NCBI GenBank assembly: GCA_965178125.1
Contig: OZ237761.1
Location: 186,001 to 250,000, forward strand
DNA: 64,000 nucleotides
Origin: Bilabrum cf. latius
Lineage: Eukaryota
Direction of reading: 5' to 3'
Below the pieces are notes generated by a model. It was given only the letters and a program-made list of their open reading frames with translations, was not told the DNA's origin and made no database searches. Below are positions 12,101-63,303 of this stretch, piece by piece; position 1 is the stretch's first letter; each line of letters starts with the position of its first letter. A program made the translations under genes and the position numbers.

Positions 12101-14446
12101 CGCTGGGTTCGGCGGCCCGCTGCCCCGCCGAGTGGATGGGCGAGGCCTCCGGGGAAATCTCCCTGCCCTTGCCCCTCTTGGGGGTGCCTGGCATGCCCAT
12201 CCCTTGTTCCCTGGCCGCCGCCTCCTCCCTTGCACCGGGTCTGACCCTTCTGTTGTCATCGGTGAGGTACAGCCGCTTCTCGAACTCTTCCTGTGGAACA
12301 GAAGGGCCGAGCTTGCTGAGCCGCTCGAGCAGCTCGTTGGCTTTGGCCGACTACTCCGTGGACCTGGATACCGCGTCGGCTGTGCTCGTCTCGATCTGTT
12401 TCTTGAGCTTCTGCATCTCTTCCGCGGAGCGGGGATGCGCCCTGGCAGCGACGCCCGCGGACCGGGCCTCAAGCCCTGGCTGGTACCGCACCACCGCGGG
12501 CTGCCTTGCATCGAACTTGACGCCCCTGCCGCCGCTGCTGTGGGACACGGGGACGCCCGCCACGGAGGACCCCGCCACCGAGTGCCCATCACCGCCTTCG
12601 TTGTTCCCTGACCCGGAGCCCCTCGAGGCCACCGAGTGCCGCGCCCTCTCCCCCTCTGACACGATGGCGGCCTCCTCCTCCCTGCTCTCCCGACTCCCGG
12701 GTCCCTCGTAAAGGCCCGAGTGCCCTGAGACGTAGCCGTGGGGGTAAGACCGCCCCGGGGACTCCTTGGTCAGCTGCGCGTTCTGTGCCCTGAGCAGGAC
12801 CTGCGCCTCCCTGAGCTTGGGCCTGCCCTTCTCCCCGCTCATCCCGGTGAGGTCACGGTACTTGGGGCCGACGTTCTCCACGCCGCGGGGGGACTGGGGG
12901 TTGTGCTGCTTGGACCCAGCGCCGGACCTGTCGGGCTGAGTCCCGCCCGAGTGGCTCTTGGGGGGCAGCGACACGCCGTTGCCGCCATTCGAGTCGTCGG
13001 AGATGCCGCTGGTCTGCAGGCGGGGCAGCGGGTGCTGCTGCCGCGGGGGCAGCATCCTGGACTTGGATCCCGAAGCGGAGCTGTTGGCAGACTCGTTTCC
13101 CGACTCCTCACCGGAGGCCCCCCGCGCCGGTGGCTCGTGCACGGCGGGCGCGTTGCCCGGCCCGTCTCCCCTCTTACCCGGGATCTGCTCGGTGCGGCCG
13201 GGGACAGCGCCCTTGCCGTAGGTGGATCTATCCGTCGAGTTGTGGGCCCGGGCGCCGCCGTTGCTGGGTGGGGGCGGTGAGGGTCCCGTGGTGGGGGGGG
13301 GAGGGGATGCCCCTGACTCCCCGCTGACCCCGGGGGGTGGCGGGGGCGACATCCCACCCGGGGGGATCGAATCGTTGCGGGCGAGCGGTGCCTGTCCCTG
13401 CCCCTGCCCCTGCCCCAGATCACCAGGTGGGGGGGTGAGGCTGTCGGGCAGAATCGAGGCGTCCGAGGGCTGCTTGTTCAGGGGCTTGTTGATCTGCTCG
13501 TCCTGACGGTGGTCCGTCTGCCCCTACTGCTGCTGCTGGGCAGATGATTGAGGCGGGGGGGGCGGCTCGACCTGCTCGTTGGACGTGTCAGCGGCCGCTG
13601 CCGCCGCCGCCGGTGGTGGTGGTGGTGGTGGTGTGCCCTCTTGCTGTTCCCTGCTCGGCGCGCGGGGCCTTTGCGGGGGAGGCGGCGGGCCGCCCGCACC
13701 TGACTGCGCGGCGCCTGCAGCCGGTTCCGCAGCGGTGGAAGAAGGGGGCGGGGGCGGCTCGACCGAGGTAAGAGCATCGTTCGACTCGAACGCGTGGACG
13801 GATGGCTCCGAGGACTCCCCTGGGGCGCTGAGGTCCTCCAGCTCTGAGCTTTCCGCAGGCGGGGGCACGGTGCCGGGCATCCGGCCGGCGACCCTCTCCG
13901 CCGCCGCGACGCCCTGCGGAACCACTTCCTCGCCGGTCGCTCTCGAGAAGAACCTTCCCTGCGCGTCCAGGTCAAGGTCCTGCAGTGCCGCTGCATTGGA
14001 GCGGGTCACCTGGGTCTGCGAACAATGGTTTCGGGTGTGTGGGAAGAGGAGTGATGAGTGCAATGATTGGGTGAAGTAGTAGTTGGTATCGATCGATGGA
14101 GGCAGCGGGGCATGCCGGGAGTCGTAACGAGAGGGAGCGGACCTTCTGCGATTCGGCTAGCCTTGTCTGCTTGGGTTCAGCCCGCTAAAGACTCTACGTT
14201 GAATATCTTTCTCACTCTGACCATCCGCAGCCACTCGTCGCGCGTGTCCCTGTCATCGAATGCGAGCACGGCCGAATCCCCAGGCCTCTCCGGCTGCATC
14301 ACCTTGAAGCCGTCGTGGCCCGCAGGCGGTCGAGCATCGCCAGCCTCAAGGGGCAGCACTCGGGCTCCTTCGTACAGCAATACCCTTCGTTTGGGCACTG
14401 TGCCTGGTTTCGGACTGCTTATTTCCGAGAACAAATCCAGGTTCAT
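6147..14446 (-). CDS. Very large Clu-domain/TPR protein with EF-hand-like motif and probable N-terminal PH-like exon; 5' end uncertain
   Basis: ORFs 13524..14063, 12351..13352, 8115..12062 and 6147..8084 are one frame joined by TAG only (13524, 12351, 12087, 8115). Clu-like motifs CVVDSLGYRI, GHQGYDRRFYVQNLARLMP and MHGAGVNARYLG; TPR-like helices at the C-terminus; DPTGQGVLTRPEF; upstream exon ends RDEWLRMVR followed by a GT donor. Confidence 0.75.
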
Positions 14447-15442: not shown

Positions 15443-18400
15443 TCATGTTTCCTATCCACCTTGACGCTCAACATCCTGTCTTTCCTCTGCCTCCTCCTCC
15501 TCCTCCTGCTCCTGCTCCTCTTGCTCCTCTTCTTCCGCAGCCGTGGTAGCACCCACCTCCAGGCCTATCCTGCTCATGCTGCGCCCACCCGCCGCACCGC
15601 CACCGCCCGTCAGCAGCGGTGTGATCACCCGATTATCGATCGCGGTGAATGCCCTCTGCAGCTGGGTGAGGGAGGGGACAGCGCCGACCCCCTGCCTCCC
15701 GAATATGCCGGACAGATCCCTGCCCAGGTCACCCTCGTCCAAACCACCCTCCTCCAAATCACCCTCCTCCAAATCACCCTCCTCCACGCCAGCACCATGA
15801 GCCAACCCGCTGCCATCAGCCCCACTCAGCGGCGGTTCCGGCCCGGTGGTGGGCGTCCGCATGGCAGACCCCGTGCTGCTGCCAGGGGGGCCGCGACCAC
15901 TGCCGTTCGAGGCAGACGTGCCTGCCACTGCTGTGCCGGTACTGCCGCCAGCACCACCATGCGATGCACCCCTAGCCAGCGCGGCTACTCGTCGCACACC
16001 AGTGGCGCCCACAACGCCGTCCGCGATGGCGGCCTGGACCAGGGAGCCGTCGCTTGCGGGCAGCCCAGCCGCCACCCGCCTCTACACCAGCAGCTCCACT
16101 GCCTATCGCGCCTCCTTTTGTGTTCCCTGGCCCCTTAGTGCCCGAGCCACTGTCCCCTCGGCTTCGGCTACCGCCTCCAGCCGGGCATCTGCTCTAGCTA
16201 CTCTTGTCCTGCGCCGCTCCTCTGCAGCTGCGAGCGCTTCACCGACCGTGAAGGATCCGCGGCCCACTGGCTTCGATCGCGGGGCACGGCGAGCTGAAGG
16301 ACCGTGACCCGTGCCATCGAGGTCGTCCCGTGGCTGTGCCCTGGCCCTGGTGCTGGCGCTGCTCGGTGTAGAGTGCCCGTTCTCATGCGCCGCTGCTTTG
16401 CTCCGCTGTGCCCTGGTCGCGCTCCTGCCTCCACGTCGGGAGCCCCCGCTGCTTCGCCCGACCTGCAGCACAGCCGAGGCCGAGTCACCGCCGTGCAATG
16501 CAGCTTCCTCGCCCGAGCCCTCCTCCAGCGGATCCACATCAGCGTCCCGTCGGGTGCCACCGTCCAGCGCGATACCGGGTGCATGCCTCCCTACGTTGAT
16601 GCTCATGTGGCTCATCCCAGGACCAGAGGGCGTGCTGGGCGCGGCACCGCCAGTCCGCACCACGCGCCGTTTGCCGCTTCCTGACGCGGTGGAGCCGATG
16701 GTTCCCTCGGCTCCCGTGTCGTCGTACCCATCCGACTCCGGATCCATGCCCGTGCTCGCACCGAATTCCAATTCCGAGTCCGTGGGCGGGATGCCGCCGC
16801 ACCTCCGCTCGCGTCGATCGGCCAGCCCACCAGCAGCGTCCACCACGCCCGCTCCATGAGGCAGGACGGCCTGCATAGCAGGAAAAGCCGCGCCCCCGTC
16901 TGGCCTCGTACCTCCTCGTTGGCTCCCACCGCTTTGTAACCTCTGGTACACGGGCCCCCGCCTCCCCCTTCCATTCCCATTCCCGGCCCCTTCGACAGTC
17001 GCCCACCGCAACACCGCCAGCACGGCCGACATTCCCACCCGCTAAGCGGACGACACGCATCCCCACGCCCCCGCGCACGCCCTGCAGCAAAGCTAACCAC
17101 ACGCTGAAGACCGCACGCCGCCAGCTAATCCACCGGTGGATCCACCCTATCCCTCCGTGCGTGCCCTGCTCCAACGGAGGCCAGACACCGCACCGGCATC
17201 CGCGTCGCTCTGCGCCCCGTCTCTGAGCACCTCCTCGGGGGGCTTGCTCCCAACTGCATGCACAGCGGCCTAGCCGCCCGCACCAGCACCGTTGCCCGCC
17301 AATCCAAAGTGCCTCAGGAGCGGGCTGATGGTGCTACCGATGGAAAGCATGGAGATCACCACCACGCTCAGTGTCACGCTCTCTAGCACAGCACCCACTT
17401 TGCGACTAGGAAGCGACTTGCGCGCTTCAGATGACAGGGCGAACGCCACGCCTCCTCGCAGCCCCGAGAACCAGAGAACGAAAGGCACGGGCGGGTCGAT
17501 CTGCTGCCTGCGGCTGCGGGCTCGATTAGCGAGCGGAGTGCAGGCGTACACGTTTGCAGCGCGACCCGCCAGACACGCCAGCACCGCCACTAGCACGCTG
17601 CCCCACTCGCCTAATTTGTTGAGCGCAGACGCTCGAGAGAACAAAGAGGGGGCGGCGACCCCGATGTAGACGAACACGAGGCTCTCGCACACTTCGGCAA
17701 GAAGGCAGAACAGCTGCAAAGAGAAACGTCTCGACTGCTTGCTGACGTTGTGCTGCGTGTAGTGAGCCATAGTCATGCCAGTGAACAGAATGGCAACGAC
17801 ACCGCTGAGCTGCAACCCTTCCGCCAGCATGTACGACACGAATGGCACGAGCACCAGCACCGCACGCTCCAGCGACGCCTCCGATCCCCTCATGGGAACG
17901 TGCTTGAACAGCAGCGCCGCGCACACACCCACACCCACACCGATCACCACGCTGCCCAAGAACGTAACGAGGAAAAACAGAGCACCCACGCCGACCGCTC
18001 GCCAGGTTACGTCCACGCCGGGGGAGGAGAACTGGAGCAGCGTGTGGTACAGCACGATGGCCACCGCGTCATTCAGCACGGACTCTCCAAAGACGAGCGA
18101 GTACAGCGTCTTGTCGGCGCCAAGAGCGTTGAAAGTCGCCAGCACAGCCACCGGGTCCGTGGCGCTGATGATGGCACCGAAGAGGGAGGCGTCCAGCAGC
18201 TGAGTCTCTTCGTAGAACAGGCCGAATCTGGCGGAGAGATACACGATCGCGGCCACGGACACGGTAGATAGGGCGGTTCCCAGGAATGCATACAGCCCAA
18301 TCGCCGTAAAATTCGCGAAAAAGGACCGCACATCCATGCTGAAGCCGCTCTCGTATATGATGGGAGGCAGCAGCAGCAGGAAGAAAGTCTCGGAGAAGCT

Positions 18401-19264
18401 GGTGTTCAGCTCCACCACGATCCTCGACAGGCTCCTGCTGCTGTCCAACAGCACGGCCAGCGACAGCAACAGCCCGATCGCGAAAAACACCATGCTCTCG
18501 GGCATCCACTCAATCCCGTTTTGCTTCAGCGCGTGCACCATGAGGAAGCCCACCGCCAGGATGGCCAAGCATATGAACACACCCATGAAGATCAGTGCCT
18601 GGTGACCCGCCGCCTCTTCGGGGTCCACCTGGGGCACATGCGGGTGCTCCTTCCCAGATCCCGAGCCGGCCGCAGGGGGGACAGCAGGGGATGGGGCCGC
18701 CGGTGCAGCGCTTGGTGTGGGGTGTGGGGCTGGGCTGGTGGAGGTGGTGCCATTGGGTGAGGCCGTGGCATTCGGTGTTGCTGGCACTAGGCTCGGGCTT
18801 GGAGCAGCGCTGGACGGTTGTGCATCATGCGGGTCTGTCCCACTCTCATCGTCTGATTCCCCAGACCCCGCCCCGCCGTGCGGGTGTGCAGACCCGGAAA
18901 CGCTTGCCGTGGGCGCCGTTGCATTCGATTGGACCGGTGCCCACGATGGGAGCGGAGTTATCGTATCGTTCATCGCCTTCACGCTTGGCGATGCATACAC
19001 CGTCGGTACGGATGTGTTCGCCGCCGTTGATGGCACCATCGCAGTCGATGGGGCAGCACTAACAGATGCGTTGGCAGCCAAGCTCGGGGAGGGCTCCAGT
19101 GGAATCTCCGGCACGGTGTCGTCGTCGACTCCAAATCCAAACAGATCATTATCAGCATGATCATCTTCACGACCGCGCTGCTGCCGTTGGCTGCCAAAAC
19201 TTCTGTCACCGAAGGCAGCAGGAGCAAACACGAAACAGATCAGCAGTACCGCGTACGAGCCCAT
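15443..19264 (-). CDS. Na+/H+ exchanger (CPA1/NHE-NHX family) with long low-complexity C-terminal tail
   Basis: Motifs FFLLLLPPIIYESG, ISATDPVAVL, LVFGESVLNDAVAIVLY and WFSGLRGGVAFAL; frame continues through TAGs at 17270, 17093, 17042, 16103 and 15452 to TGA 15443. Confidence 0.9.
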
Positions 19265-19475
19265 ACTGGTTGTTGTTAACGCGGCATCTTAGCTTCAGTG
19301 CGGTATGTGCGCGATATGGACTTTAAAAGTTCACAAAAGATTCTCCATACAGGAGATAGGGACACCAAACTGCAAGTTTTTGTCAATATCACGACAGTTC
19401 CGAGAGCGGTCAAATTTGCATCGCACTGGGGTGCACTGCGAAACTTGCTGCAAAGCCAATCATAGGCATTGTACC

Positions 19476-30246: not shown

Positions 30247-33200
30247 ATGAGCGACACACAAATTGAATCGTATGGGCACCCACGTGATGAGGATGATTTG
30301 GAGCTGCGAGAATCGATTTTTGGCCGGGCCGCGAGAGTGTTTCGCAGCTCTGTTCAGTTGGAATCGGTCTCCCAGTTTCAAACAATGAGAATGGTATGGG
30401 AAAGCTGTAAGAGGTAAATTGTAGGAGTCTCGTCTGGCCTCAGGACGGAGTTTTGGGCCTTTTAAACGTGCTTGGCGCTCCCTGGAAGGCACTTACTGAA
30501 TCACGTGGAAGTGTTCGTTTCGCATTCTACAATTGTTCGCATTGTTCGCAGTCCGAGAGGCAGGTCATATCAACATTGCAATGGCGGTCATTGGATCATG
30601 TGAGGAGTATTGTGCACCTGGCTGCTCTCCCGATATCCGCAATCTCAGCGAGCCACTCGTGACCAAGTCCGAGGCAATGGCATACCCGTATCGCAGACTA
30701 TTGCACAAGAAACCCGGAATACACCAAGCAAGACTGGGATTCTGCAGCAAAGCGCTTCCTGGAGGCAGAACATGACGAGGACTCGCTCCTCGAAGAGCAG
30801 GTGCTCGCCATGCGGCGAGCCATGGAGCGGCTCGCCGCGCAACAGGGACTCGCGAAGGGCGTCGCACCGGTCATGCCCCGAGCAGCGCCAGAGGGCGTGC
30901 TGGCAGACCCTGGCAACAAGGATCATGGCGACTCGCAGAGTGACGGTGAGCACTCGTCACACAAAGGGCCGACGCCGGATCCGTGCACGTTCCTCCTAGG
31001 GCTGGGGTACCCCCCGCTGGCAGAAGGCGAGGATGGGGACGGAAAACCGGAAGTAGACGGGCGGGATGCAGGAGCTGCCGACACCGGCAGTAGCAGAGGG
31101 GGCGCCTCTTCTGGCGCGGGAAGCAGCAACAGCAGCAGCAGCAGCAGCAGCAGCATCAGCGGCATTGGTGTCAGCGGCGGAGGCAAACCGGCCGACTCGG
31201 ATAAACAATTCGTCTGGGGCGAGCACATGCTGCAGACCCTGGCACCCGAGCCGGAGCGCCTTAACGACGACATGGCCTATTTTCTGGAGCTGAGGGTGTG
31301 GCTGGCAGCGGCGCGGGCGGTGTACAAGCCCAGTCGGTTTGTTGAGAGGCTCGCGGCCGGTCTGGGCCGGGCTCGGTTCGTGTGCGGGGAGGCGAAGCCA
31401 GCCGCTGAGGCCCTGGGTCTGGCGAGCGCAGGCGTGTAGCATTCGGAGCCAAAAAGCAGCGGAGTCGAGGACAAGGAGGCGGAGGATGAAGATGAAGATA
31501 GAGATGGCCGTGAGGGCGAGGATGGTGGTGGTGGCAGCGCTGGCGCGTGCACTCAGGCGCTGCTGAGCTTCGGGCGATTCAACAAGAAAAAACTAGCCAA
31601 GGAGAAAGAAGAAGAAGCCGAAGGCGAGACGCTGCAGCTATCAGACAAGGTGAGCGAGGTGGGTGCTGATTTCGCAGACGACGCCGACGCCTCATCTGTC
31701 CACGTGGTCATGACCAAGGAACGTTCGGAGACGTTCCTTCCCGCGTTCGTACTCTACATCGACGAGCAGCGGGAGGCCGTTGTTCTCTCGATCAGGGGCA
31801 CTTCGGAGATGCGTGACTGGGTCACCGACGGGGCGGGCAAAGTGGTCCCTTTCCTTGGAGTGGGCCGGGCGCACACTGGCATGGCGATGGCAGCGCGGCT
31901 GCTGCTCGGTCTCACGCCACAGCAGATGCGAGACGCGGAACTCTTCCACTGCGGCGAGAGCGAGTGGGACTCGGAGCGGAAAATTAAGGCCAGGGAGCGG
32001 GAGGAGGGGAGGAGCACAGCCAGGGATGCGCTCAAGCAGGCATCATCAACTACTTCGTCTGCATCTGCGTCTGCTTCTGCTTCCGGTGCATCGGAAGGCG
32101 CAGGAGGAGGAGCAGCAGCGGCAGCAGCGGCAGGGGACGGCGAGTTGTCAGGGAGCAGCGGAGACGACGACGACGACGATACCCCAACCGGCGCTGGTGC
32201 ATCTCCGATCAATCCCGCCGACTCCATCGGTGGATCGGAGGTGGATAAACTGGTGAAGGAGGTCTTCGAGGCGCACAAGACCTCCAGGCGGCAGATGGCT
32301 GGGAGCCACGACGGCAGGCCCGCGCGGAGTCGCTCGGGCGGCCAACTCGCCATGAAATTGGAGCGGATGGAGGAGGAAGCAGTGCACAGACTACGTGCCA
32401 TGGAACAGGAAGCTGCCGTTGCATGGGGCAGCAGAGGGACGAGCAGTGGCAGCGGCAGTGGCAGTGGCAGTGGTAGCAGTGACGGCAGCAGCAAAGGGCC
32501 CAAGAAGGAGGACGAGGACGGTGATGGTGACCCGGAGGGCGGTGATGGTGACCCGGAGGACGGCGATGGTGACCCGGAGGGCCTGCTTGCTGCGGCTTAC
32601 GGCGGGAAGGAAGAGGCCAGAAAGGCCATACGGTTTCTCAGGTAGCACGGGGCCGGCCATCCCAGCGACGGGCACAGGCCGGCAATGGTGCGCTTGATTC
32701 AGAAGTTGCTTGACGACAGGCCGTCCTTCCGCATGATCGTTACGGGTCACTCACTGGGCGCGGGCGTGGCTGGCCTCGTGACTATGCTGCTGGCGCGACA
32801 CCTGCGGTTCAGCCCAGCGGCTTTCGACAGGTGCGGAATCCCCAACGAATGCAAGGGTGGTCAAAGAGGCTCTGTAAGGGGTGACGATGAGCGCGACGCC
32901 GAGGACGGCTCTCGCTCCCGGCAGCAGCAGCAGCAGCGGCGCTTTCCTTTCTAGGCCTTGCCACTCCACTGCTACGGATTCGCCCCCCCCGCCTCTTCCG
33001 ACGAGTCGCTGTGCATGGCCACGCGCGGACTCGTCACATCCATCGTGGCTGGAGACGACATCATCCCCCGTTTCTCTCTGTCGAACGCCCTGCAGGCCTA
33101 CGAGGATTTGCTCGAGGCGCACGGGAAGTGGTGGCCCGAGTTCGACCGGGACGTCTTGTTGGCTGACTGGAGGCGGAGGGCGGGGAACGCCGTGAGGATG

Positions 33201-34664
33201 GCTGGGACGGCAGTGTCACACGCGGTGGCCAAGTCGGCAGCCGCTGGACTCGGAGCCGTAACCGGCATCCTCGGAGCAATCGCTCGGTCTGCTTCACCGG
33301 CCCGCTCGGGGGCTACGGCCACGAGGGTCATGCTGGCGGGCGGCGCCGGTGCCTTGGCCGGCGGTGCTGCGGCTTCGTACATGCTGGATGACGCTGGTGA
33401 TGACGAAGACAGGGGAGGGGTCACTGCTCGGGGCGAGCTGGATGGCGACTCGGAATCAGAAATGCTCCGGGAGCAGATGGGCAGGGCGAGGGAGGCGCTG
33501 CAGAGGGCGGTCGATGGGGGAGAGGGAGAAAGAAGGGGGGGGGGAGACGGTGAAAAGAAGGATAAAGGCAGCGGTGACAGTAAAGAAGACGCTGGTAGTG
33601 AAGGCAACACAGTGACCGATGACGAGACCAAAGCCGCAGCCGATGGTGGTGCATCCGAACAGATGGAGAGGGCCACGGAGGAGAAGCCCTCCAGCTACCT
33701 GCCGGCATTCCTGCGGAACATCGGAGGCGGAGGCGGCGCCGCGCAGCCTCCTCCGGACCCCGCCGCGGTGAGGCGACAGAGGTTGCAGGCAGCCCGCATG
33801 CACAGAACCTCGCCACCAGGTGCAGTGGTGCTGGTCCAGCTGCTGGGCAGGGGGCGCGTGGTCGAGGCCCGCAAGCAGCGCCGCAAGGTCATGCAGGCGA
33901 TCGCAGCAGCAGACGAAGCTGAGGCAGTGAACCCGCCATCCAGCGGGGGTACCGGGGCTGGAGCAGGCAAGGGTGAGGGTGAGGGCGGGGACAAGCCTTC
34001 GGCAGATGCTGAGGCTGAAGCTGAAGCAGAGGCTCTCAAGAAGGAGCAGGAGGAGGTGGAGGCGATCCGGGAGCAGCTGAGGGAGGCCATGGCGAGGAGG
34101 AGGACCCTGTTCTACCGGGAAAACGAAGATGAAGACAAAAAAGAGTCCAACTCGTCTTCTGGAAGCAGCCGGGCTGCCGGAGAGGGCGATGGGGATGGGG
34201 ATGGGGATGGGGAGGTTCCCAGCTCTACCCTTTCCCCGCACGGTGCGCAGCAGTGGGTCGAATCCAGGGCGTGTAGGACGCACCGCTGTTCCCTGGATCG
34301 CATCTTGTTCTCTCCGTTCGCGGTGCGGGACCACCTGTGCGGGACGTACGAGGCCGCGCTGGATGATAGACTGGCGCGGCTGTGCGAGGCCCCTGCCACT
34401 GATGTGGGAGATATCGAGGTGGAAGGAGTGCTTGACGAAGAGGATGAGGAGGAGGAGGAGGGTGGGGGTGGCCTGAGCGCGCTTGGGCTGGCGCAGATGG
34501 GACTGGCGACGGGGGGATCGGCAGGGGCTGCGGAAGCGGCGGGCGTGCAGGCAGCCGGTGGGACGGGGGACAGCGGTGCTGCGGCGGCTGCGGGCGATGG
34601 CGATCAGCAGGATGGTGGCTCTGAGGACAAGAGAGGGGGGATCTTGGGCTTTTTCGGGCTCTGA
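30247..34664 (+). CDS. Class 3 lipase domain protein with long low-complexity insertions; 5' exon structure uncertain
   Basis: VVLSIRGT...DWVTD, AHTGM, VTGHSLGAG, YGFAPP and GDDIIPRFS motifs, collinear only if TAGs at 31437, 32643 and 32952 are sense. Confidence 0.85.
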
Positions 34665-37526: not shown

Positions 37527-37981
37527 ATGCAGTCCACCAGTGTATTCGTACTGGTCTCTACAGCATCGTTTCTTGGACTTTGCTTCTTGTGTAGTGTTGA
37601 TGCACTTCGTGAAACGCAGCAACAAAAACTTTCGCAGTCCTAGGGGAGCTAGCCGCAGTGCTTTCGGTCCTCCCGCCACCGAAACTCGTCCTCCGGGTCG
37701 CTATTGCAAGTGTCTATCCCAACACCACCTCACGTTCCAGTTGTTTGGCTAGATGGCGGGTACATTTGGGAATCGGAGGGCCTCCTGCAGTCGTGCAAGC
37801 CCAGCAAGCCTGAGGAGTGTGAGAGGGAGCCGATCGCTGTCGTCAAGATTGGCAAGCGGAACTCCCATATGTTCGTGGTCGACGACGTGCTGATCAAAAA
37901 GATCGAACATGTGGCCACTCTCGTGGACGAATGCGAGCAAGGTGCTGTCTGCATCGGGTTTGTGGGCAACCCTGCCGGTGT
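37527..37981 (+). pseudogene. 5' part of an ORF interrupted by the virophage insertion
   Basis: Frame reads ...GFVGNPAG up to the TSD and rejoins the right flank in frame when the element and one TSD are removed; start codon uncertain. Confidence 0.65.
37977..37981. repeat. Left 5-bp target-site duplication GGTGT
   Basis: Same 5-mer at 61432-61436, immediately outside the TG...CA ends. Confidence 0.95.
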
Positions 37982-38082
37982 TGTTATCCGCCAAAATGTG
38001 GAGTTATGATAACTCTATTTCTACTATATAGTAGAAATAGAGTTTACTTATATAAAAACTACACACATTTTGGCGGATAACA
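37982..38082. repeat. 101-bp terminal imperfect palindrome (hairpin-forming)
   Basis: 19-bp outer arms TGTTATCCGCCAAAATGTG / CACATTTTGGCGGATAACA and a central perfect 34-bp palindrome. Confidence 0.95.
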
Positions 38083-40003: not shown

Positions 40004-42802
40004 ATGACGACCGAACACATATCTAACCCTGTTTATTTCTCAATAGCTCACAACTCTAAACAACCACTTATTAAGTCTTGGTAGAATTTGGAATCTACTA
40101 AACTTATCACCAGAAAGTCAAATCTTAATGTTGGATTACTTACTGGAAGACGTGCAGGTTTCTTTGTCCTTGACTTAGATTGTGAAAAAGAGAAAAATAA
40201 AACTGAATTTCAAAATGGTAAGTTTATTGCGGAATATGGTAGTGTTGATAAGTTTATTCAAGAGATGAATACTTACACTGTCAAGTCTCCCAATGGATAT
40301 CATTTGTATTTTAAGTATGAAGAAGAGTTTAGTAAGAGGTCAGTAAATAGAAAAGAACATATAGATGTGATCACAAATGATAGCTTTATCATGTGTCCTC
40401 CTAGCTCTATCAACGGTAAGAAATACGAACTAATACAAAAGACATCCGTGAAAAGAATACCAACTGACGTCAAGATGTTCATACTACAAAATATCTATTC
40501 ACCACAACTTACAGCTGAAGACTACCGTTATATGATTAAACCCGAAGAATACAAACAATACTTATATCAATTAGGTAAAGAGTATTATTCTAATTCATAT
40601 AACTGGCATCTAGTTTGTAGAGCTACAAGTTATATCGCTAAATACTTAAATCCAGTAGATGGTAATAAGGTATATGATATATTTGATGAATGGAGCAAAC
40701 AAGACGTAGAAAGCTATTAGTCGACTAAGAACAAGATAATTTTTACTCGATTATTACAAAATTCCACTTTTCAATGTGTTGAATGGTTCTTTAACTAGTT
40801 AGATAGTGAAAAGAAACGACTTAGCCTATATTATCGATACAAGATATTCAAGAATAAAGTAGTCAAGAAAGTCAATTAGAAGATTGACCGTAGATATTTG
40901 ACTGCTGACGACAAAGGTCGTTATATTAAATTCTTTAAGAAAGGTATCAACTATGCCGTTAAGTCGGGGGCTGGTTCTGGAAAGACAACTGCTGCTAATG
41001 ATTTATTTAATAGAGTAGATGACAGCTTTTTATCAGTTGTTAGTCGTATTTTATTAGGTAAGCAATAGATGCGTAGTCTTCCAAAATCAACTAAATTCTA
41101 TCAAGACCATAAATACAAATAGGGTGATAGTATTGTTATTACTCCTGAAAGTATTGTTAGTCTTAGCAATTATAACTTTAAGGATTATATTGTCTTTTTA
41201 GATGAGTTTAATAGTATCTTAGAACACTGTTTAAGTTCTACGACTTTATATGGTAGGCGACCAATGAGTTTCATTACTCTTATTCGTGCTCTTACCACTT
41301 GTAAGTAGTTCATAGTAGCAGATGCTGACTTATCTCAAGATGCTCTATATTTCTTAGAATTATTAAAATTAGATTATCAATATATTAGGAATGACAGAAA
41401 CAGGTTCAAGGGCACCAAAACTGTATTTGTTAATGACGAACAGACTTTTAGAGATGAGTTAATGAAACACAAGAAATTTATGCTTGCTAGTGATAGTAAG
41501 ACAAAAGCTGATATAATCAATGAGTTAATTAGTCTTAAAATTATAGATAACGAGAAAGATAAGAAATTAAATAAAATCTTAATACTTACAGCAGAAAGCG
41601 AAGACAAAGACTATGATATGGATTTGTTTGATATCATTATCTTCTCACCTAAAGTCATTTACGGGATAGATAGCACTATGACTAGACCAGTCTTTGGTTA
41701 TTTCAAAGGTCATACTATCACACCTCCCCAAATGGTTCAATAGCTTAACAGATGTAGAAACCCATCACATATCACTATATTTTTTGATTACTAGAAAGGA
41801 CGATCTAGCACATATGAAAGTCTTTCACAAGTTAAATCTTTTATGGCTACCTCTTTAAAAGACTACGAAGAATTAGTTAAATTTGTCAGTGATACATATC
41901 CCGACTTCAACGAGGTAGAAGTAGAAGACAAAGTAGAAGAAGAAATGAGCAAAGTTAAAATCATATTCAAGAAACTATATCGTAATTATCTTTACAAGGT
42001 AGATTGTTATAAGACAAACCCTAAATTACATATGATCAAGTAGTTAATTGATACCGGTTATGACGTGTCTTATGATTTATCTGTTAAGATCACCAGATGT
42101 AAGGATAAAGAAATCAAAGATACCATTAAAGAAAAACAACTTGAAAATTTTGATATTAATTGTCTTAATGTCAAGAAGATTAATAAATATTTAGACTTAG
42201 ATGAAGGTGATATTGACAAATACAAAGAGTACTTTATTAATAAAGGTAAGTTATCTAATTTATTTAATTTCAATAAATTCTTTAGACAAGATGATAAGCA
42301 CTTACTTGTGAAAGCAATTAATAAAGGCGAGTTTGATATTATCAATGCTAAGTCTAGTTCTAGAAAATTAGTCTTACTTAATAAGATGATTGATACTTTA
42401 GGTCTTAAAAGAACTAATCTTGATTATAATATCAAAAAGAAAGTATTAGATCAAGACTTAACAGATGAATATAGGACAGTGTATGACTGCCAAAGAAGAA
42501 GTAAAGTTGACTTATCCACTGATAAAGGTCTTTATTACGAAATACTTAAAGTATATAAATCAATGTTTGGGAAAGACATATTTATGACTTGTAAGAAAAA
42601 GAAAATTAACTATGATGTAGAATTTAATTAGGATATTATTGATGAGATGGAATATATCTGGTCTAACAAGAAAAAGACTCGTGAAGTAGATATATTTGTT
42701 GATGATGAAGAGGTTCAATTACCCGATGAAGAGATAGAGGTTGACTTAGACCCCGCTTTATTTGTTGATGAGGATAATGATCCACTAGAACAACAAAATT
42801 AA
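40004..42802 (+). CDS. Bifunctional primase-polymerase (AEP) fused to a UL9/origin-binding-protein-like SF2 helicase, 932 aa
   Basis: KQPLIKSW*, NVGLLTG...FVLDLD and GYHLYF (PrimPol); PriCT-like IFDEWSK; KSGAGSGKTT, FLDEFNS, ADADLS, FSPKVIYGID and VQ*LNRCR helicase motifs; 11 in-frame TAG and no TAA/TGA until 42800. Confidence 0.85.
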
Positions 42803-42864
42803 ATTATGACTTATTAATAAAAAACTTAATAAGACTTAATAATACATACCTTATATAAAATGAC

Positions 42865-43215
42865 TTAGTGGTCTCTTTTTGTCTTTTTAATTTTTTCTTC
42901 TCTCTTCTTCCTTTCACATTCACTTCTTTCAACACGATACATCAGCTCCTAGACGTGTTTCACTTGCTCTTCATATTCTAACTGTTCCAATGTACTTTCG
43001 AGTTTCTTGATAATATTGTCGAATTTAAAACTAAAGACATTCTAACGATAACCATCACCTTTGTCTTTTGGTTTCATCCATACATATTTATCAAAGTGAT
43101 TCTCAATACTTTTACCTATACTACTGACTACATCATCGACACCTACACCTTTAACAAGACATTCATCTATAAAATTTTGAGATAGTTCAATTTTGATATC
43201 TTCTTTATCTGACAT
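42865..43215 (-). CDS. Small viral protein, MSDK family paralog A (116 aa)
   Basis: ATG after the shared promoter block, 2 in-frame TAG, ends at TAA. Confidence 0.7.
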
Positions 43216-43246
43216 TACTATATATATAGTGGATATTTTTTGGCGA
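43216..43246 (-). promoter_or_regulatory. Putative viral promoter class 2: CGCCAAAA..TATC..CTATATATATAG just before ATG
   Basis: Repeated upstream of ATGs at 43215, 44158, 44723 and 58295, and partially at 58615 and 55709. Confidence 0.65.
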
Positions 43247-43384
43247 AAGTAATAAACTAGTCTTAAGATATGACCGCCCGAAATTGCGGTAATATTATAG
43301 CTATTTAAGATATATTTCCGCAATTCTGGGCGCGTAGGTGTATTGAATTTTTAAATTTATTTGAATATAATATTTTTTACCTCT

Positions 43385-43706
43385 TGGTGCGTTGTGGTCT
43401 TGGTCTAGTGATATCGTGATTGTTTCACAAAGTCAAGGTCGTGGGTTCGATTCCCACCACTGACATCGCCGTAAGTCGTTCTGTAAGTCATTTTCATGAC
43501 AAAGCACACGTCTTGCAAGTCTTTGAAGGGAGTTTGGATACTGTAGAAGTAGTCGTAAGTGGTTGTAGCAGACTTAGTCGTAAGACTTAATAGGGATAGC
43601 GGTCCACAGCTGACATTCGCATCTCCGCTACAACAATGACTTACGAATGACTTCGCCAAGTAGTCAAACCATCGGTATAATTACTAGCTCAAAGAAATTT
43701 TTTTTT
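43385..43706 (+). ncRNA. Candidate Pol III-type structured RNA: tRNA-like 5' domain, long hairpin and T9 terminator
   Basis: A-box TGGTCTAGTG 43401-43410; AGGTC variable loop; T-arm GTGGG-TTCGATT-CCCAC 43441-43457; nested helices 43520-43695; T9 at 43698-43706; locally raised GC. Confidence 0.6.
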
Positions 43707-43768
43707 ATTACATAGATATGACTTAATATTAATAACTTTAATATTAAGACTTTATTATTAAGACTTAA

Positions 43769-44158
43769 TTATGACATATGTTTTTTATATTCTTTAACAC
43801 TCCTATCCATAGCATCCAGAATCATTTGTCTGTGATCTTCTTCAGTTAATGGTCTTCTTTTCCTGTTGCTATCACTTAACTTACAATGAACGTATCCCAT
43901 AATCGCGTCTTGTCTTTCATCAGTTAAGTCTTTAAGTAATTCAAAAACTTGATTTGCTTTATAGTCGGTCGTGTATGAGAACTCCATCATTCCATCTTTT
44001 GGAGTCGGTTGACCTATTTGTCTTAACACTATCTCATTTCCTTCTATCTTACTTGTGATTTTTCCACATAACATCTTACCTATTCCATCCCAATCAAGGT
44101 TTACACTTGATACAAGACTTTGAGAAAACGATATTTTTAAATCTACTTTATCTGACAT
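43769..44158 (-). CDS. Small viral protein, MSDK family paralog B (129 aa)
   Basis: True ATG follows the duplicated promoter block; ends at TAA. Confidence 0.75.
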   Translation of the reverse strand: MSDKVDLKISFSQSLVSSVNLDWDGIGKMLCGKITSKIEGNEIVLRQIGQPTPKDGMMEFSYTTDYKANQVFELLKDLTDERQDAIMGYVHCKLSDSNRKRRPLTEEDHRQMILDAMDRSVKEYKKHMS

Positions 44159-44300
44159 TACTATATATATAGTGGATATTTTTTGGCGAAAGTAATAAAC
44201 TAGTCTTAAGATATGACCGCCCGAAATTGCGGTAATATTATAGCTATTTAAGATATATTTCCGCAATTCTGGGCGCGTACCCGTATTGAGTTTTTAATAA

Positions 44301-44723
44301 TTAATCCATATTAGGGGGTTTCTTATACAAGATAGCAGGGTCGCATCCATTTGTTGGAAAGTCTGCTGGATACCACCCCCATACTACTTTATAAATATCT
44401 GTGCTCGTGTCGTGTTCAACTTTATGATAAAAAATACAATCATAATGAATACCATTCTAATTACGCACCTCTTGCTCCATCTCTTCAATTATCTATCCTA
44501 CCTTTAACTTTGTAAAGCCTCCTTCACTTACATATGTCTTTATATGACCTCTATTATTTACTTGTATCTAATCTTTATCTATTACAATGTCTTCAGGATC
44601 TCCTTCAAGTTCATCATCTAAGTAAACCTTTTGAGATTTAAGTGTTGGGTCTTCTCTATGTGGTAAGAATAAGAATGAATACTCCATATAAAGTAAGTCT
44701 TCACACGGTGATACTGCTGCCAT
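44301..44723 (-). CDS. Viral hypothetical protein (140 aa, 3 in-frame TAG)
   Basis: MAAVSPCEDLLYMEY...KKPPNMD-TAA; same promoter block; absent from the ORF track. Confidence 0.7.
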
Positions 44724-44910
44724 AACTATATATATAGTGGATATTTTTTGGCGTAATATTTAAACTAGTCTTAAGGTATGACCGCCCCAAATTGCGGTAA
44801 TATTATAGCTATTCAAGATATATTTTCGCAATTCTGGGCGCGTACCCGTATTGAGTTTTTAAATTTAGTCAATATTTATAACTTTTAAATATTAATTAAT
44901 AATTTACGAC

Positions 44911-46797
44911 TCACATATTGAGCTACTTTCTAAGTTTCATAAGTTGAGCCTTAGTTAATTTCTTACCTCCACTGGTCAAAAGACTTCCACCACTAGTTAA
45001 AAGACCTGCTCCAACACGTTCAGCTAGGTCATTCACTTCATCGGGTAAGTATTCACTTACTGCTTGTCTTGCTTTACGAAGAGCTGGTTTCACTTTATCA
45101 AATTTAGCTTTAGCTTTCTTTCCAAAGTCTACCACTTTACGTCCTAAGTCTTTAGCTTTGTTAAAGGCTCTCTTAAAGAATTGCATCACTTTACGACGTC
45201 TTCCACCTAATACGTTCTTAGAGTAGTTCATATTAGAAAATGTATAATTAGAAGGTTTAGCCACTTTCTCAGGGTCAACAGAAGCACTATCTTCACGCCA
45301 TTCAATAGCGGCACCTCTAGTATTCACGATAATCTTGTCATAGGCACAGAATAATTGAGCTTTATATCCTTGAGACATAGCAGCGGTTGGGGGTTCGTCA
45401 TAGGCTACTTGAACACGAATACTAATAGGGTCAGCACTGTTGCTTTGAATAGTTTCAGGAGTATTTAAATCACTAAGTCTAAATAAGAGCCAGCCATTAG
45501 ATCCGTATACTTTAGAAGCACCTCCTACAGTTACATCTAAGTTAGTAAAAGAAGCATACTCACTATTTGATCCATTTCTTTCACTAAGTCTAAAGATATC
45601 GTCTTGTGTAAGTTCTCCTAAAATAGAACCCTAAGACCTAAGTTGTACTTTAATATTGTTAATGGCAAGTGTTCTATGAGGTGTACCACTAGCTTCTCCA
45701 TATTGAGAATCAACTAAGCACACAGCAAACCAAGAAGGGCAAGTCTAAAGTTGATAATTATTAAAAGTATGGACACCTTTAGTAGTGATAGGATTATCAA
45801 GTTTAGGCTCTTCATGTAGTTCAAAGTCAACAGAGTTGTAGAATATTTGTTTAGGTACTTTCTTCAAGAAGTTAAGATGAGTATTATAAGTAAAGACATC
45901 AAAATGGATCTAGCAATCGGATAAAGCAAAAGCATAGTCTCCATTCCAATCACTTGAAGTATTAAACATCTTATCAATTAAGTTATTTCTCATTTGTAAA
46001 TTAACATTTAATTGTGGATGATCAACAAAAGGTCTAGCATTACCACCCATCATATATTGGAAAGGACGTGCAAGAAGTGCTTCAGAGATTTCAATATGTA
46101 ATTTGACATAGTCTTGAGTTGGTGTTACATTATTATTAGGTATTGGAGTATTAGCATCCACTTTTTCAAGTGTTGCGCGGTAATTCTTACCAGGACCGCG
46201 AGCTTCCATAATACTATCATCATTTACACCCCATTGAAGGACAGACTTAGCAAGACCATTTGCGGCAGTATTAAATTCCCAAGTGTTATCAGCCTAAAAG
46301 ACAGGACTTATTTGTGCTAGAGTGGCACGGTCAAGACTTCTAGCTATTAAATTGACTAATTGATAAGGTGATGAACTACGAGATAAGTCTCCCATTTTAA
46401 CTGTGGAACTTGTGATCATTGAATTTACCATAAATGTAGAAGGGGCTACCTTATTGACGATATCAGTTTGAGCTACTGCTCCATTGTTCTAACTATCATA
46501 GATGTATACGTCAAATGAAACTCTTAGACGGGGATTACTGTCAGTCATTCCTTGATTTGATGGCACTACGAAAGTATAATTACTTCTAAATGCATTAGTT
46601 GCGCTAGAGTTACCACCATCTGGTTCGTAGTGATTTTGAAACTTGGAAGAGTATCCAAGGGTAGTTCCTAGAGTAATAGCTTGACTATCACCCACAAAGT
46701 TGAGTTTTTCGTCAGCTATTTGAGTTACTGGTAGTTCTGAGACGTCATCTACGACTTTGCTTTGTGCTGCTACAGGTACATTATCCATATCAGACAT
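44911..46797 (-). CDS. Virophage major capsid protein (double jelly-roll), 628 aa
   Basis: Three same-frame track ORFs joined by TAG; size, position after the penton, beta-rich sequence, and a basic C-terminal tail after VLGG with LLTSGG repeats. Confidence 0.85.
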
Positions 46798-53402: not shown

Positions 53403-53645
53403 ATGGTATATACTATAATATTTTAATTTAAAAATATTACATTGTAAGAGGTGGCTATATTAAAAATGACTAAATTATAAAAATCAATACGCCTACGCGC
53501 CCAGAATTGCGGAAATATATCTTAATATCCTAATATATTATCGCAATTTGGGGCGCTAGTATTATACTATATCTTATACTACTAACTTTTTAAAATCTCG
53601 TAATTTAAAAAAAAAATATCTAGTCTAGCTAATATAATATAAGTA

Positions 53646-58655: not shown

Positions 58656-59189
58656 TTATTTCTTATATTTCTTTCTCTTCTAGTTACAGTCATAACAAAA
58701 CCAGAAAGTGGCTCCTGGTTTAATAAGATACTTTTCACATTTCTTACATTGTGAGTATTTCCTCTTTTTATTATAACAACTAAGACAAGTCTTTTTATAT
58801 TTATGTTTTTCAATGAACTCATCGCAATCAGTGCATCTACTCTTATCTTTTAATATGTCTTTATTTAATTCGTGTTTAATGGATTTAATATGACTTTTCC
58901 AGCTACTACGTTTAACAACACAAGAGCATACATCACAAGTCTTATACATACAAGCCTTATACACATCATGATCCTTTTCGAATGTGTTATTAATACATTC
59001 AGAACCTAATTTAAATATATCACCAGTTGGGGGATACTCAACGAAATGAACTTCCTTAATTTGGTGATCACAGATACACTTTCCGTCTTCTTCTCTAGTC
59101 TCTCCAGCTGGTATTAATAGAGGGGCTATCTTATTCCAGTCATTAATCTTTAGCTTATTGATTATGAAGTTACGACATTTATAGCACAT
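58656..59189 (-). CDS. Cys-rich multi-zinc-finger viral protein, 177 aa
   Basis: CICDH...GSEC, C2H2-like CDVC...HIKSIKH, and several CxxC pairs. Confidence 0.75.
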
Positions 59190-59346
59190 TATAATATAGT
59201 ATATACTATAATAATATATTATTTTTAAGTCTAATTAAACGAGATGTCTTAAGCTCGATTCAAATTTGGGCGCCCGAAATTGCGGTAATATTATAGCTAT
59301 TCAAGATATATTTCCGCAATTCTGGGCGCGTAGGCGTATTGACTTT

Positions 59347-59754
59347 TTAATTTAATATTTTTAATTGTTTCAGTCTTGCGTCCACTTTAGACCTATAGTC
59401 ATCTAACCATTTTTCCAAAGTATCCCCTTTAACATACCTTTTTACATCTAATACTCCATTGGCTAGTTTTGTTAAGTAGTCCTTAATAGCATTATCACTT
59501 CCCCATAAGATTTTATGACTGTGATATTTTGAGCTATTAGTATCGGTAGTCTTCCCGTGTCTTCGGTAGTATAGGCGTCGTCTTTTAGGGTCAATATGGT
59601 TATTATCTCCATACTTACCAATCAAATCAAAGTATTGAGCATATCGTGCATCACCAAAGCTAGTGATATACTTACCATTTTTGAATACATCATATTTCTT
59701 ATTTCTACGAGTAGAGGGTTTATATTTGAATCCATCAATAATTATCTCATACAT
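59347..59754 (-). CDS. DUF5754-like protein of giant viruses/virophages
   Basis: STRRNKKYDV, FGDARYAQY, RRRLYYRRH and HKILW pattern. Confidence 0.65.
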   Translation of the reverse strand: MYEIIIDGFKYKPSTRRNKKYDVFKNGKYITSFGDARYAQYFDLIGKYGDNNHIDPKRRRLYYRRHGKTTDTNSSKYHSHKILWGSDNAIKDYLTKLANGVLDVKRYVKGDTLEKWLDDYRSKVDARLKQLKILN

Positions 59755-59972: not shown

Positions 59973-61431
59973 ATATGTAAAATTGAATACGGGTGAGCGC
60001 CCAGAATTGCAAACATAATTTTCTTGATACTTATATATTTCCGCAATTTGGGGCGGTCATATTTATTATTAGTTATTTTAAAATATCTCGTCAAGTGGTT
60101 AAGTCTTTTTGTGATATCCCGTTAAGTGGTCAATAAAATGAACGGTAAGTCAAAAAAATTAATCAAAATAAAGAAGTAGTTGATTATTAATTATTGAAGA
60201 CACCTAAGCGCCCAGAATTGCGACAATATATCTTAATATCCTAATATATTACCGCAATTTCGGGCCGTCATTTCTGGACATTTAATATAGCACATACTAG
60301 AAATATCTTTATTACAAAATTACACCTCTATAAGATAACTATGTCAAAATTAACAAAATATAAAACTCAATACACCTACGCGCCCAGAATTGCGACAATA
60401 TATCTTAATATCCTAATATATTACCGCAATTTCGGGCGCTAGTATTATACTATACCATATTTTATTATCCTATATTTTCCATTTAATCTAGTGATTAATC
60501 ATTTCAAAGTAATACACTTGACATAAACCAGTTCATTGAGTCATTTTAAAGTCATCGTCAAAACATTTATCATTTTTAAGTTATCCCGTTTTGTATTCCT
60601 TTATATCATATACTCAAACAAAGGACTTAAAACATATTTAAAGAATTATGAAAAATAAAAATCAATACACCTACGCGCCCAGAATTGCGAAAATATATCT
60701 TGAATAGCTATAATATTACCGCAATTTCGGGCGATAGATTAAAGGATGTATTTTTAAGGGGATACCCTTACATTTGAAGTTTTGAAGAGATGACATATAA
60801 AAGACTTTATAAAGTGATTAATATCTCCTTCTAGTTATATTTAAATATTCAATTATTTAAGTATAGATTGACAAGTAATAAAAAAAGAGATAAATTAAGT
60901 TGATATATTAGTTTAGTTTTATTTATTAATTTAAATTTTTCATTGGAAGTATTAAAAAGACTTTAATACTTCTGTCAATCTCTTTAAGTATTTATTTAGT
61001 TATTTTCTAAAGTGGTAAATGTCAATTGATACTTAAAACCAAATCATAATATAAAACTCAATACACCTACGCGCCCAGAATTGCGAACATATATTCTTAA
61101 ATGACTATATATTTCCGCAATTTCGGGCGGGCATATCCTAAGACTTAGGCTAGGGATTCACTCAACAGATTAAGTAAAGTAAAGGTCTAACAGATAGACA
61201 TTAACGGCGCGAAGGTATTAAATTAGGTAGATATATGAATAAATAGCTATTAAATTATTATGTTCAAGTGAAGGACATTATGAAGGACTACGGCTTAAGA
61301 TGTTGTGAAGTGGTTAATATTGACCTCTTATGTTATCCGCCAAAATGTGGAGTTATGATAACTCTATTTCTACTATATAGTAGAAATAGAGTTTACTTAT
61401 ATAAAAACTACACACATTTTGGCGGATAACA
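59954..61431 (-). repeat. Right terminal inverted repeat (~1478 bp)
   Basis: Reverse complement of 37982-39458 with few differences. Confidence 0.95.
61331..61431. repeat. 101-bp terminal imperfect palindrome, identical in direct orientation to 37982-38082
   Basis: Base-by-base comparison. Confidence 0.95.
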
Positions 61432-63303
61432 GGTGTGCCACATGATGCGTTCTAGGTTGCCATGAAACGAAGTGGGGCTTTCTCGGGAGCATTAATACGA
61501 ATGTATCTGTCATACTAGGAATCTCTTCACACGCTTGGTAAAGAGGCGAAGCTGGCCAAGGCTGGCCTGCGGGTGATCACTCTATCCAAACCGCCCAGGC
61601 TTGCTCATCTCTTTGGGCATATTTCATCATCCCACAATGTGGAAAACCCTGCACTTGCATCGCTGGGACATCCTGGCTGCAGCTAGCTTGGTCGGAAGAA
61701 GCTAGCCCAGCTGTATTGCCGTGACCCGAGCATGTTTTGGGGTTTATTTCCACCCCAGCCGGAGCCAAAACCAGTTGATGAGGCCGCAGCGGCTGCAAGT
61801 GGCCCGCAAAGAAAGAAGACTCAGCCCCCTGCGATCAAAGGCGGAGGGGCGGGTAAGCCCTCTACTGAAGAAGGCGCCGGTGCCGACGAGATTCGGGACC
61901 TGCGTGAGAAGAGCACTCGTTCTCAGCGCGATGCAGCAGCGAAGGTTCTGGGCGTCGGCGGCGATTCCCCGGAAGCGAAGAGGGTACGGAGTTCCGATGC
62001 CGCAAGCAGCAAAGTAAAGGGCTCGCCACCGCAAGCTGGCATAGAGAGCACCGACTCGGAGTCAGGTTCGGGCAATGACGGTGAGGGGGGAGTAGGCTCA
62101 GGCGAGGCAGTAGGTCCCACCAAAGAACAGGGTGTGGGCATTGCATAGGGTACGGGCAACGCTGGTGGCCAAGGCCAAGACAGCTCGGGCGGTGTACGAG
62201 GCAGGAGACCTGGTGCTGGGGATGGCACCTGTGCCGACGTGGAGTTCGGTGGATCCGATGATGAGGATGAAAAAGCGAACAAACAGGCGTTGGATACGTG
62301 CGTTAGTCTTCTCGAGTTCGAGCAAGGCGACGAGGACCCTGCAGCGAGAAAGTCTGTCGGTGCCAGAGTCCATGCAAGGAGGCAGCAGAGCATAGGCAGT
62401 AGTGAGGCCATGACAGAGGGTGAGAAAGGCGCAGGAGAAGGGGGCAATGCCGCCAGTGTTGAGGCCACGGACGTTTGCCGGGAGATGCTGAAGGCCAAAA
62501 AGGAGCAGGAGCTGTCGGCTCTATCTGCATAGGTAGGTGGGGCATCCAGCGGGGCGGGGGGCGACCGAAGTGGGCCTGCATGCGTAACTCCATCGTCGAT
62601 TGCTTTGGAGCAAGGGGCCCACAAGAGCATGGAAGCATTTGGAGCAATTCGAATGATGAACGAGGCCGGCCTGTCCGAGGTATTCATGCCCAAGGTGGAG
62701 GTAGGCGGCAAGTCCACGCTGAGGCGAGCACACCAGGAAGCACTTACAGGAGTGCGCAATCGGGCCGCTCCTTGGCTAGTGCTGTTGGACGATGGTGTGA
62801 TGCAGACTGTGCTGAGCAATGTGTACAAGTTTAAGCCAGGCGACGAGGGGGAGTACGGAGACGCTTGTGGTGCGACGGAAGCCACGCCACCATTCGAGCG
62901 GGTCCAGCGGGCGTACGTGCAGTTTGTGCTGAGCAAGCTCCAAGATGCTCTGCCAGAGGAATTTGACCTTGGTCGAAGGGCGGCTGTCCTAAAAGAGGTC
63001 CAGATAGCGGAGATAGCCGTCCGTATTTCGATGCTGGGCATCCAGGCTGTTCAATCATTGGAGGACTCCGTTGCGTACTTCTAGTAGGCTGGGCAAGCTA
63101 CTGATGCCAGTGCCGCTGACGCACAGGAACGCAGCCCACCAACAGGATCAAGTGCGGGTGACAGAGCTTCGAAGGTATTGACGCACGCCCAGAAATAGCG
63201 CGGATGGCACTGCTCCAAAACGATAGGATTGGCAGAAGCTAAGGCGTCCTGGTCGTCCGGGCCTCACCACTTCCGCTCGCTTGTGTTCCTAATGCCGATT
63301 TGA
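61432..63303 (+). pseudogene. Right TSD (61432-61436) and 3' part of the interrupted ORF
   Basis: Frame open from the TSD through ORFs 61732.., 62239.. and 62605.., joined only by TAG, to TGA 63301-63303. Confidence 0.7.

Follow-up and report, generated by a model that had tools for sequence, protein, structure and literature searches.

The endogenous virophage of Bilabrum cf. latius carries, in the spacer between two of its small genes, a unit that begins at 43391 and ends at about 43701 to 43706, and which, with a probability of about 0.5, represents a tRNA-derived, SINE-like module, separable from its surroundings, equipped with a type-2 Pol III promoter and lodged in the virophage spacer as a passenger. 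This reading is the simplest one because it covers, all at once, a head that is competent as a promoter but does not fold, a body unrelated to tRNA, a T run, ends resembling those of a transcript, occurrence in other contexts, a foreign composition and an enlarged spacer. The unit (43391-43706) is not a working tRNA, since the ARAGORN and Rfam searches were negative and the cloverleaf lies 12 kcal/mol above the best fold. All positions refer to the window, that is, the whole 64-kb stretch of DNA that was analysed, and the main features are collected in Table 1.

Table 1. Features of the unit, of the virophage that carries it and of the adjacent host DNA.
Feature	Position	Strand	Basis and remarks
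tRNA-derived head	43391-43465	+	Sequence reading; degenerate, without functional cloverleaf
A-box-like element	43401-43411	+	9 of 11 letters agree with the consensus TRGCNNAGTGG
Anticodon-like stem-loop	43417-43435	+	9-nt loop, without CUA; predicted pair probability about 0.007
Variable-loop-like pentamer	43436-43440	+	Typical 5-nt length; direct reading
T arm	43441-43457	+	Perfect 5-bp stem, 7-nt loop; pair probability 0.99
B box	43444-43454	+	11 of 11 letters agree with the consensus GGTTCGANTCC; sole exact copy in the 64-kb window
Small 5-bp hairpin	43487-43500	+	Carries the internal T4 run 43491-43494; possible weak or early Pol III stop
Imperfect palindrome (rod), 182 nt	43516-43697	+	Fold prediction
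T9 run, Pol III terminator-like	43698-43706	+	Direct reading
Hairpin module of about 75 nt, copy next to the unit	43276-43350	-	Outside the unit; faces gene 42865-43215 (-)
Mavirus-like endogenous virophage, intact, 23,450 bp	37982-61431		Inverted ends, Pfam, target duplication
Host ORF with in-frame TAG	6150-14252	-	TAG read as sense
Host ORF with in-frame TAG	15446-19288	-	TAG read as sense
Host ORF with in-frame TAG	30663-34661	+	TAG read as sense

The carrier virophage and its genetic code

The window consists of GC-rich DNA (58-72% GC) around an island of 30-31% GC, and this island is an intact, recently integrated, mavirus-like virophage. The element is regarded as both intact and young because its inverted ends (about 1.45 kb) are 99-100% alike, its 5-bp target-site duplication (37977-81 and 61432-36) is intact, and its 19 ORFs are open once TAG is read. 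When TAG is translated as Gln, the Pfam domains above cutoff comprise a Prim-Pol primase-helicase, the virophage major capsid protein domain MCP_V20_C (30.4 bits, where 27 is the cutoff) and an rve integrase that also carries a Chromo domain; matches to an AAA packaging ATPase and a weak match to a C57-like protease fall below cutoff. A preliminary description of this DNA had placed the unit in the provirus of a virophage, and the capsid, the integrase, the inverted ends and the 5-bp duplication bear this out.

Under the standard code the longest ORF of the island has 302 aa; with readthrough of TAG the ORFs extend to 942, 638, 564, 484 aa and so forth, and fill the island. Of the 19 virophage ORFs, 15 stop at TAA and four at TGA; together they contain 74 in-frame TAG codons, against 137 CAA and seven CAG. 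Of six TAG sites in the capsid gene, five correspond to Gln in relative P0002 and three in relative P0003, with R, T, N or E at the others, and the Gln residues of these relatives could partly be TAG codons as read by the gene caller. On the side of the host, a 2,701-aa ORF of the CLU family contains five TAG codons and no internal TAA or TGA, and further ORFs that need TAG to be read encode a Na/H exchanger, a class-3 lipase and an FSH1 hydrolase. As judged from these ORFs, TAG is a sense codon in virophage and host, probably for Gln, with TAA and TGA ending the ORFs. Since the host genes need the same reading, the virophage follows the code of its host, and the host should supply the decoder. 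Reassignment of UAG only is rare in eukaryotic nuclei, and no description of a TAG-recoded virophage was found in the main texts of the open-access literature.

The outermost 101 nt of the virophage at each end (37977-38082 and 61331-61436 when the 5-bp target duplication is included) form a near-perfect hairpin of -51.3 kcal/mol. Both ends carry this hairpin in direct orientation, so that there is no inversion of its asymmetric inner part from one end to the other, as in flip/flop termini. A hairpin module of about 75 nt, formed by a GC-rich 14-bp stem and an AT-rich loop, recurs at 21 places between 38285 and 61158, including the copy next to the unit (Table 1), 44219-44293 and 53475-53562. 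It is present in nearly every spacer, five times in each inverted end and about 60 nt upstream of start codons, and it probably serves as a promoter, as a hairpin signal for 3' ends, or as both. As for the affinities of the element, a search of 5.8 billion protein clusters with the capsid protein (gene 44911-46797, minus strand) gave only two close relatives, with 88% and 86% identity, each from a contig of about 2 kb, and the next-best relative is 32% identical (among 1.84 billion representatives), so the lineage of this virophage is poorly sampled. Related virophage loci were not found in IMG/VR with the single capsid protein, an alignment of five sequences gave 90 pattern matches there of which none was confirmed, and a tblastn search of phage records for sister virophages gave no matches.

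The spacer and the anatomy of the unit

The spacer holding the unit (43216-43768) measures 553 nt; those after the two neighbouring genes measure 142 and 187 nt, with nothing in them but the repeated hairpin module. The unit is flanked by the stop codon of the minus-strand gene 43769-44158 and by the module preceding gene 42865-43215, and its GC content is 43%, against 31% for the virophage. A second copy was not found in the 64-kb window, including its 40 kb of host DNA. The enlarged spacer, the higher GC content and the single copy together make the unit look like an addition to a compact genome. By eye, and in comparison with other spacers, the AT-rich flanks of the virophage copy display no clear target-site duplication or A-rich tail, and the two longest stop-free frames of the unit match no protein among 5.8 billion clusters. 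The small tandem genes on either side (42865-43215 and 43769-44158, minus strand) have similar N-termini; together with gene 44301-44723, also on the minus strand, they share an upstream repeat of 187 nt whose copies are 77-91% alike, and a fourth copy of which lies at 59164-59350.

The promoter elements of the head were scored against the motifs TRGCNNAGTGG and GGTTCGANTCC, which we take to be the consensus sequences of the A box and the B box. The two boxes are 32 nt apart, and their pairing is unlikely to be due to chance, because an A box with at most two mismatches and an exact B box, 25-50 nt apart, occurred together in only 2 of 300 windows simulated with a first-order Markov model. Around these boxes the head is well preserved in its 3' half and eroded in its 5' half. 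The anticodon-like stem (43417-21/43431-35) has five base pairs, including one G-U, and closes the loop 43422-30; the acceptor-like pairing (43391-97/43458-64) amounts to five of seven pairs, two of them G-U, and the D-like stem (43402-04/43413-15) to 3 bp. An A box, a pentamer, a perfect T arm and a 5-bp stem with a 9-nt loop had all been named in the preliminary description and are all present on direct reading; its non-canonical acceptor and D arms are likewise confirmed by these counts, and its Pol III layout by the tRNA-like spacing of the boxes and the T run downstream. The start of the unit, which it had set at 43385, needs to be moved 6 nt further in, the likely 5' boundary being 43391, where a contig of run X8 breaks away from the window.

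A check of the head with tRNA detectors, which the same description had proposed, was negative. ARAGORN with default settings found no tRNA in the whole 64-kb window, and Rfam gave no family at the gathering threshold and no tRNA match for the unit even at E<=10. At E<=10 the T arm was the only part of the head to be matched, by an 18-nt piece of the tmRNA model (13.8 bits); Rfam models recognised this arm in local search (E 0.002), and the other sub-threshold matches of the unit belonged to unrelated families. Relaxed ARAGORN settings, which give dozens of calls across the virophage element, produced two mutually inconsistent calls on the head, namely an 86-nt 'His' tRNA and a D-armless mitochondrial type. 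Folded as a cloverleaf, the head reaches -6.7 kcal/mol, against -19.0 kcal/mol for its minimum free energy structure, and in the ensemble the acceptor-like pairing has a probability of 0.0, with the values for the other two arms given in Table 1. The head alone folds no better than shuffled sequences (z -0.70; 48 of 200 as good). What the head retains of a tRNA gene is thus its promoter, with A box, B box and T arm, whereas the shape of a tRNA is lost.

Behind the head, the T runs of at least four letters within the unit are limited to the T4 run in the small hairpin, which the preliminary description had not named, and the terminal T9. The rod reaches -51.9 kcal/mol on the plus strand (z -2.98; 1 of 200 shuffles as good) and -50.2 kcal/mol on the minus strand (z -3.35), with four G-U pairs among 59; for the whole unit the z-score is lower on the minus strand (-3.44) than on the plus strand (-1.76). 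Because both strands of the rod fold equally well and G-U pairs are few, the rod is a palindrome at the level of the DNA, and its structure is no evidence for a particular strand or for an RNA. The preliminary description had proposed a long, possibly switchable hairpin made of the nested helices 43520-26/43689-95, 43553-60/43639-46 and 43562-69/43627-34 and followed by T9. The three helices are perfect and T9 is where it was said to be, and the long hairpin stands as a stable palindrome of 182 nt; what it does not provide is evidence for one strand or for an RNA, the minus strand being equally stable. In the full-length ensemble the two core helices have pair probabilities of 0.6-0.99 and the outermost helix one of about 0.017. 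As to the switch, the alternative helix 43483-92/43635-44 is indeed a perfect 10-bp complement, but it was rejected on thermodynamic grounds, having a probability of 0.006 and costing 3.8 kcal/mol when enforced. This complement arises because the unit contains five occurrences of one short motif; of 12 copies of the six-letter core of that motif in the element, on both strands, the unit holds four.

Copies in other sequencing runs and searches for relatives

Nine sequencing runs were listed as containing the stretch or part of it, six of them with at least half of its words and two with a fraction of 0.42-0.44, and copies were compared in contigs of four runs (X4, X5, X7 and X8). None of the listed runs is recorded as RNA, and whether X7 and X8 are RNA or DNA is a guess of the tool. 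In X8, which bears another organism label, a contig of 226 nt matches 43391-43593 without a difference, and the 23 letters upstream of 43391 (12 of them G or C) are unlike the window. In X7, with yet another organism label, a contig of 280 nt matches 43443-43701 with three differences and continues, after the fourth T of T9, into 21 letters unlike the window, 18 A and three G. Over the remainder of 42000-45000, X7 and X8 gave no coverage, a blank to which no weight is attached. Because these contigs diverge exactly at 43391 and 43701, positions expected for the two ends of a Pol III transcript or of its retro-copy, the unit appears to be a separable module that has other neighbours elsewhere. 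In X4 a single contig of 630 nt, the only one on the unit in that run, spans 43317-43946 without a break and thus includes both ends of the unit, while one of 380 nt in X5 bridges the left end. In both of these runs the unit stands in the same virophage context, and no second abundant context is visible, unlike the piled-up bins of the 21-copy hairpin module. A weak joint in X5 from 43698 to 44291 (depth 4.8, side 25) was discounted as likely repeat noise. Membership in a SINE-like or host family, which the preliminary description had set against its own reading of the unit, is favoured by the different flanks in X7 and X8 and disfavoured by the single context in X4.

The window differs from X4, X5 and X7 by three substitutions only (43607, 43608 and 43610), all of which lie in the unpaired apical loop of the rod, around 43605-43611. 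These three substitutions within four bases (43607-43610) could be a clustered change or a difference in assembly or polishing. The flanking genes are equally invariant, with no differences over 1,233 nt in X4 and X5, and the conservation of the unit is therefore no evidence of selection on its structure.

Wider searches returned no relatives of the unit. A first exact-pattern search of IMG/VR gave no matches, and a second gave a single contig, L001, with a generic T arm only, in which ARAGORN found no tRNA. Positions 7141-7175 of L001 are a lone 3' part of a tRNA (T arm and acceptor side), possibly the remnant of an attachment site. Two patterns of the unit gave no matches in JGI metagenome contigs, nor did blastn with the unit against phage records. 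Virophage tRNA genes and retrotransposon remnants in endogenous virophages are already in print; no description of a tRNA-like Pol III cassette in a virophage was found in the main texts of open-access literature.

Competing explanations and their significance

As a SINE-like module, the unit would be recognised by host TFIIIC, which would bind the B and A boxes, with TFIIIB placed on the AT-rich DNA upstream. Pol III would start near 43391, partly read through the weak T4 run and stop in T9, and the product would be an RNA of about 310 nt with its 3' two-thirds folded into the rod. Its spread could have been by retroposition of a Pol III transcript, or the virophage could have captured it as a cassette; inside the virophage it would most likely be a passenger. 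It resembles tRNA-derived SINEs in its degenerate tRNA head with A and B boxes, its tRNA-unrelated body and its length of about 310 nt, and also in its sharp ends at tRNA position 1 and in the T run, the X7 copy leading into an A-rich stretch. SINEs have been reported in the genome of a baculovirus (PMC8010984), and the unit is like these in lying inside a viral genome. Unlike SINEs, it has no visible high copy number in the two runs that hold the virophage, its virophage copy has no clear target-site duplication or A tail, no partner LINE is known, and its body is a long palindrome. Several findings were counted against the SINE-like reading: the single context in X4 and the lack of a second copy in the window; the lack of a clear target duplication or A tail at the virophage copy; the T4 run, which could end Pol III transcripts before the rod; and the equal stability of the rod on the minus strand, together with the lack of relatives in IMG/VR, JGI, phage records and Rfam.

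Alternatively, the unit might be a Pol III ncRNA gene owned by the virophage and maintained by selection, similar to the TMER genes of MHV68 or to adenovirus VA RNA and transcribed by the host from the latent provirus, in which RNase Z would cut behind the head and the rod would serve as a small-RNA precursor, decoy or sensor. This is unlikely. The promoter and terminator anatomy fits it as well as it fits the SINE-like reading, the provirus that carries the unit is intact and young, so the unit is carried by a functional element, and the rod has at its core 17 bp of almost uninterrupted duplex, for which the pair probabilities are as high as given above. Virophage copies in the runs of two organisms also differ by those three apical-loop changes only, but the flanking genes are just as conserved, and the copies seen have no compensatory changes, being too alike for covariation. 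The head is also an improbable substrate for RNase Z, given its acceptor-like pairing, the longest other match or complementarity of the unit within the window is 13 nt (E 0.25), which is not extended, there is no match to an Rfam family, and the unit is found with unlike flanking sequence as well. A virophage ncRNA was also the reading of the preliminary description; its Pol III anatomy and its intact virophage hold, and the unlike flanks make a SINE-like or host family at least as likely.

The two explanations could in principle be joined. The unit would then be a virophage Pol III gene, read by the host in the silent provirus, with a head and a 180-nt rod, a protist counterpart of the TMERs that moves from virophage to host genomes and back as a retroposed transcript; this is doubtful. 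It is no less doubtful that, as a further part of the same joint reading, its RNA would give rise to small RNAs by processing, or play the part of decoy or sensor, in the contest between host, giant virus and virophage. The TMER genes of murine gammaherpesvirus 68 (MHV68; compare PMC8223928) combine a tRNA-like head with pre-miRNA hairpins and are transcribed by Pol III. The unit is like them in being virus-borne and in having a non-decoding tRNA-like head with internal boxes, a hairpin and a T run. It differs in that there is no similarity in sequence or at Rfam, the rod is a multi-loop structure of 182 nt where TMER genes have a hairpin of about 60 nt or a pair of these, a tRNA fold is not predicted for the head, and the unit also occurs away from the virus. 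The VA RNAs of adenoviruses, with a length of about 160 nt, act on PKR and Dicer in animals. They share with the unit the internal A and B boxes for host Pol III and a highly paired predicted RNA; however, they are not tRNA-derived in this way, and the unit has no Rfam match.

It is distinctly improbable, too, that the head is a decayed virophage tRNA gene which happens to lie beside an unrelated palindrome, that is, a relic with no present transcription or function. Virophage genomes with tRNA genes have been described, 18 of high quality and another 12 (Paez-Espino 2019, PMC6905037), the head is kept and eroded in halves, as noted above, and the T4 run lies 26 nt behind it, where the terminator of a tRNA gene would be expected. 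On the other hand, head and rod are found together in the contigs of X7 and X8, with sharp ends at 43391 and 43701, which is unexpected for unrelated neighbours, and the B box and T arm are perfect, whereas uniform decay would be expected of a neutral relic in an AT-rich genome. The unit shares with those published genes the position of a tRNA-type gene on a virophage with an integrase; unlike them, called as they were with defined anticodons in the account drawn on here (PMC6905037), it fails detection and is fused to a palindrome.

Very unlikely is an element that acts at the level of DNA, either the solo terminal repeat or footprint of a mobile element or a 3'-end hairpin of the minus-strand gene 43769-44158. 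The unit does lie downstream of that gene, and its palindrome folds slightly better on the minus strand, as the z-scores of the whole unit indicate; at other 3' ends in the virophage, though, it is the repeated 75-nt module that is used. Ngaro retrotransposons have left solo AB repeats in endogenous virophages and, scattered, in the genome of their host, with an intergenic bias, and Ngaro insertions in Cafeteria are described as GC-rich (Hackl 2021, PMC8547959). The unit is comparable to these repeats as a short, GC-richer intergenic insertion in a mavirus-like element that is present elsewhere too, with other flanks, but the account of the repeats consulted (PMC8547959) mentions no tRNA-like or Pol III features, and, in contrast to the Ngaro-bearing Cafeteria elements, there is no retrotransposon in this 64-kb window. 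The composition of the unit is also far from the 58-72% GC of host DNA, and nothing in this reading accounts for the tRNA-type boxes, the T arm or T9.

Finally, an unusual suppressor tRNA decoding the in-frame TAG codons of the virophage, for which the 74 such codons and a published virophage suppressor-type tRNA with anticodon TTA (PMC6905037) might speak, is effectively refuted as an amber suppressor with anticodon CUA: no CUA lies in a foldable anticodon loop, the loop 43422-30 being without CTA and the sole CTA (43405-07) having no flanking stem, the 9-nt loop, poor acceptor and missing cloverleaf argue against it, and the host, whose own long ORFs need TAG readthrough, should supply the decoder.

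If the unit is a SINE-like passenger, it would show traffic of retroposons or cassettes between the genome of a protist and an active virophage lineage, and would serve as a marker of that lineage. To our knowledge, activation of virophage genes depends entirely on the transcription machinery of the giant virus itself. If true, a Pol III unit with an internal promoter would be the first case of a virophage sequence open to expression from the latent provirus by the host nucleus alone, and it would give a molecular handle on latency, sensing or the cross-talk between host and virophage.
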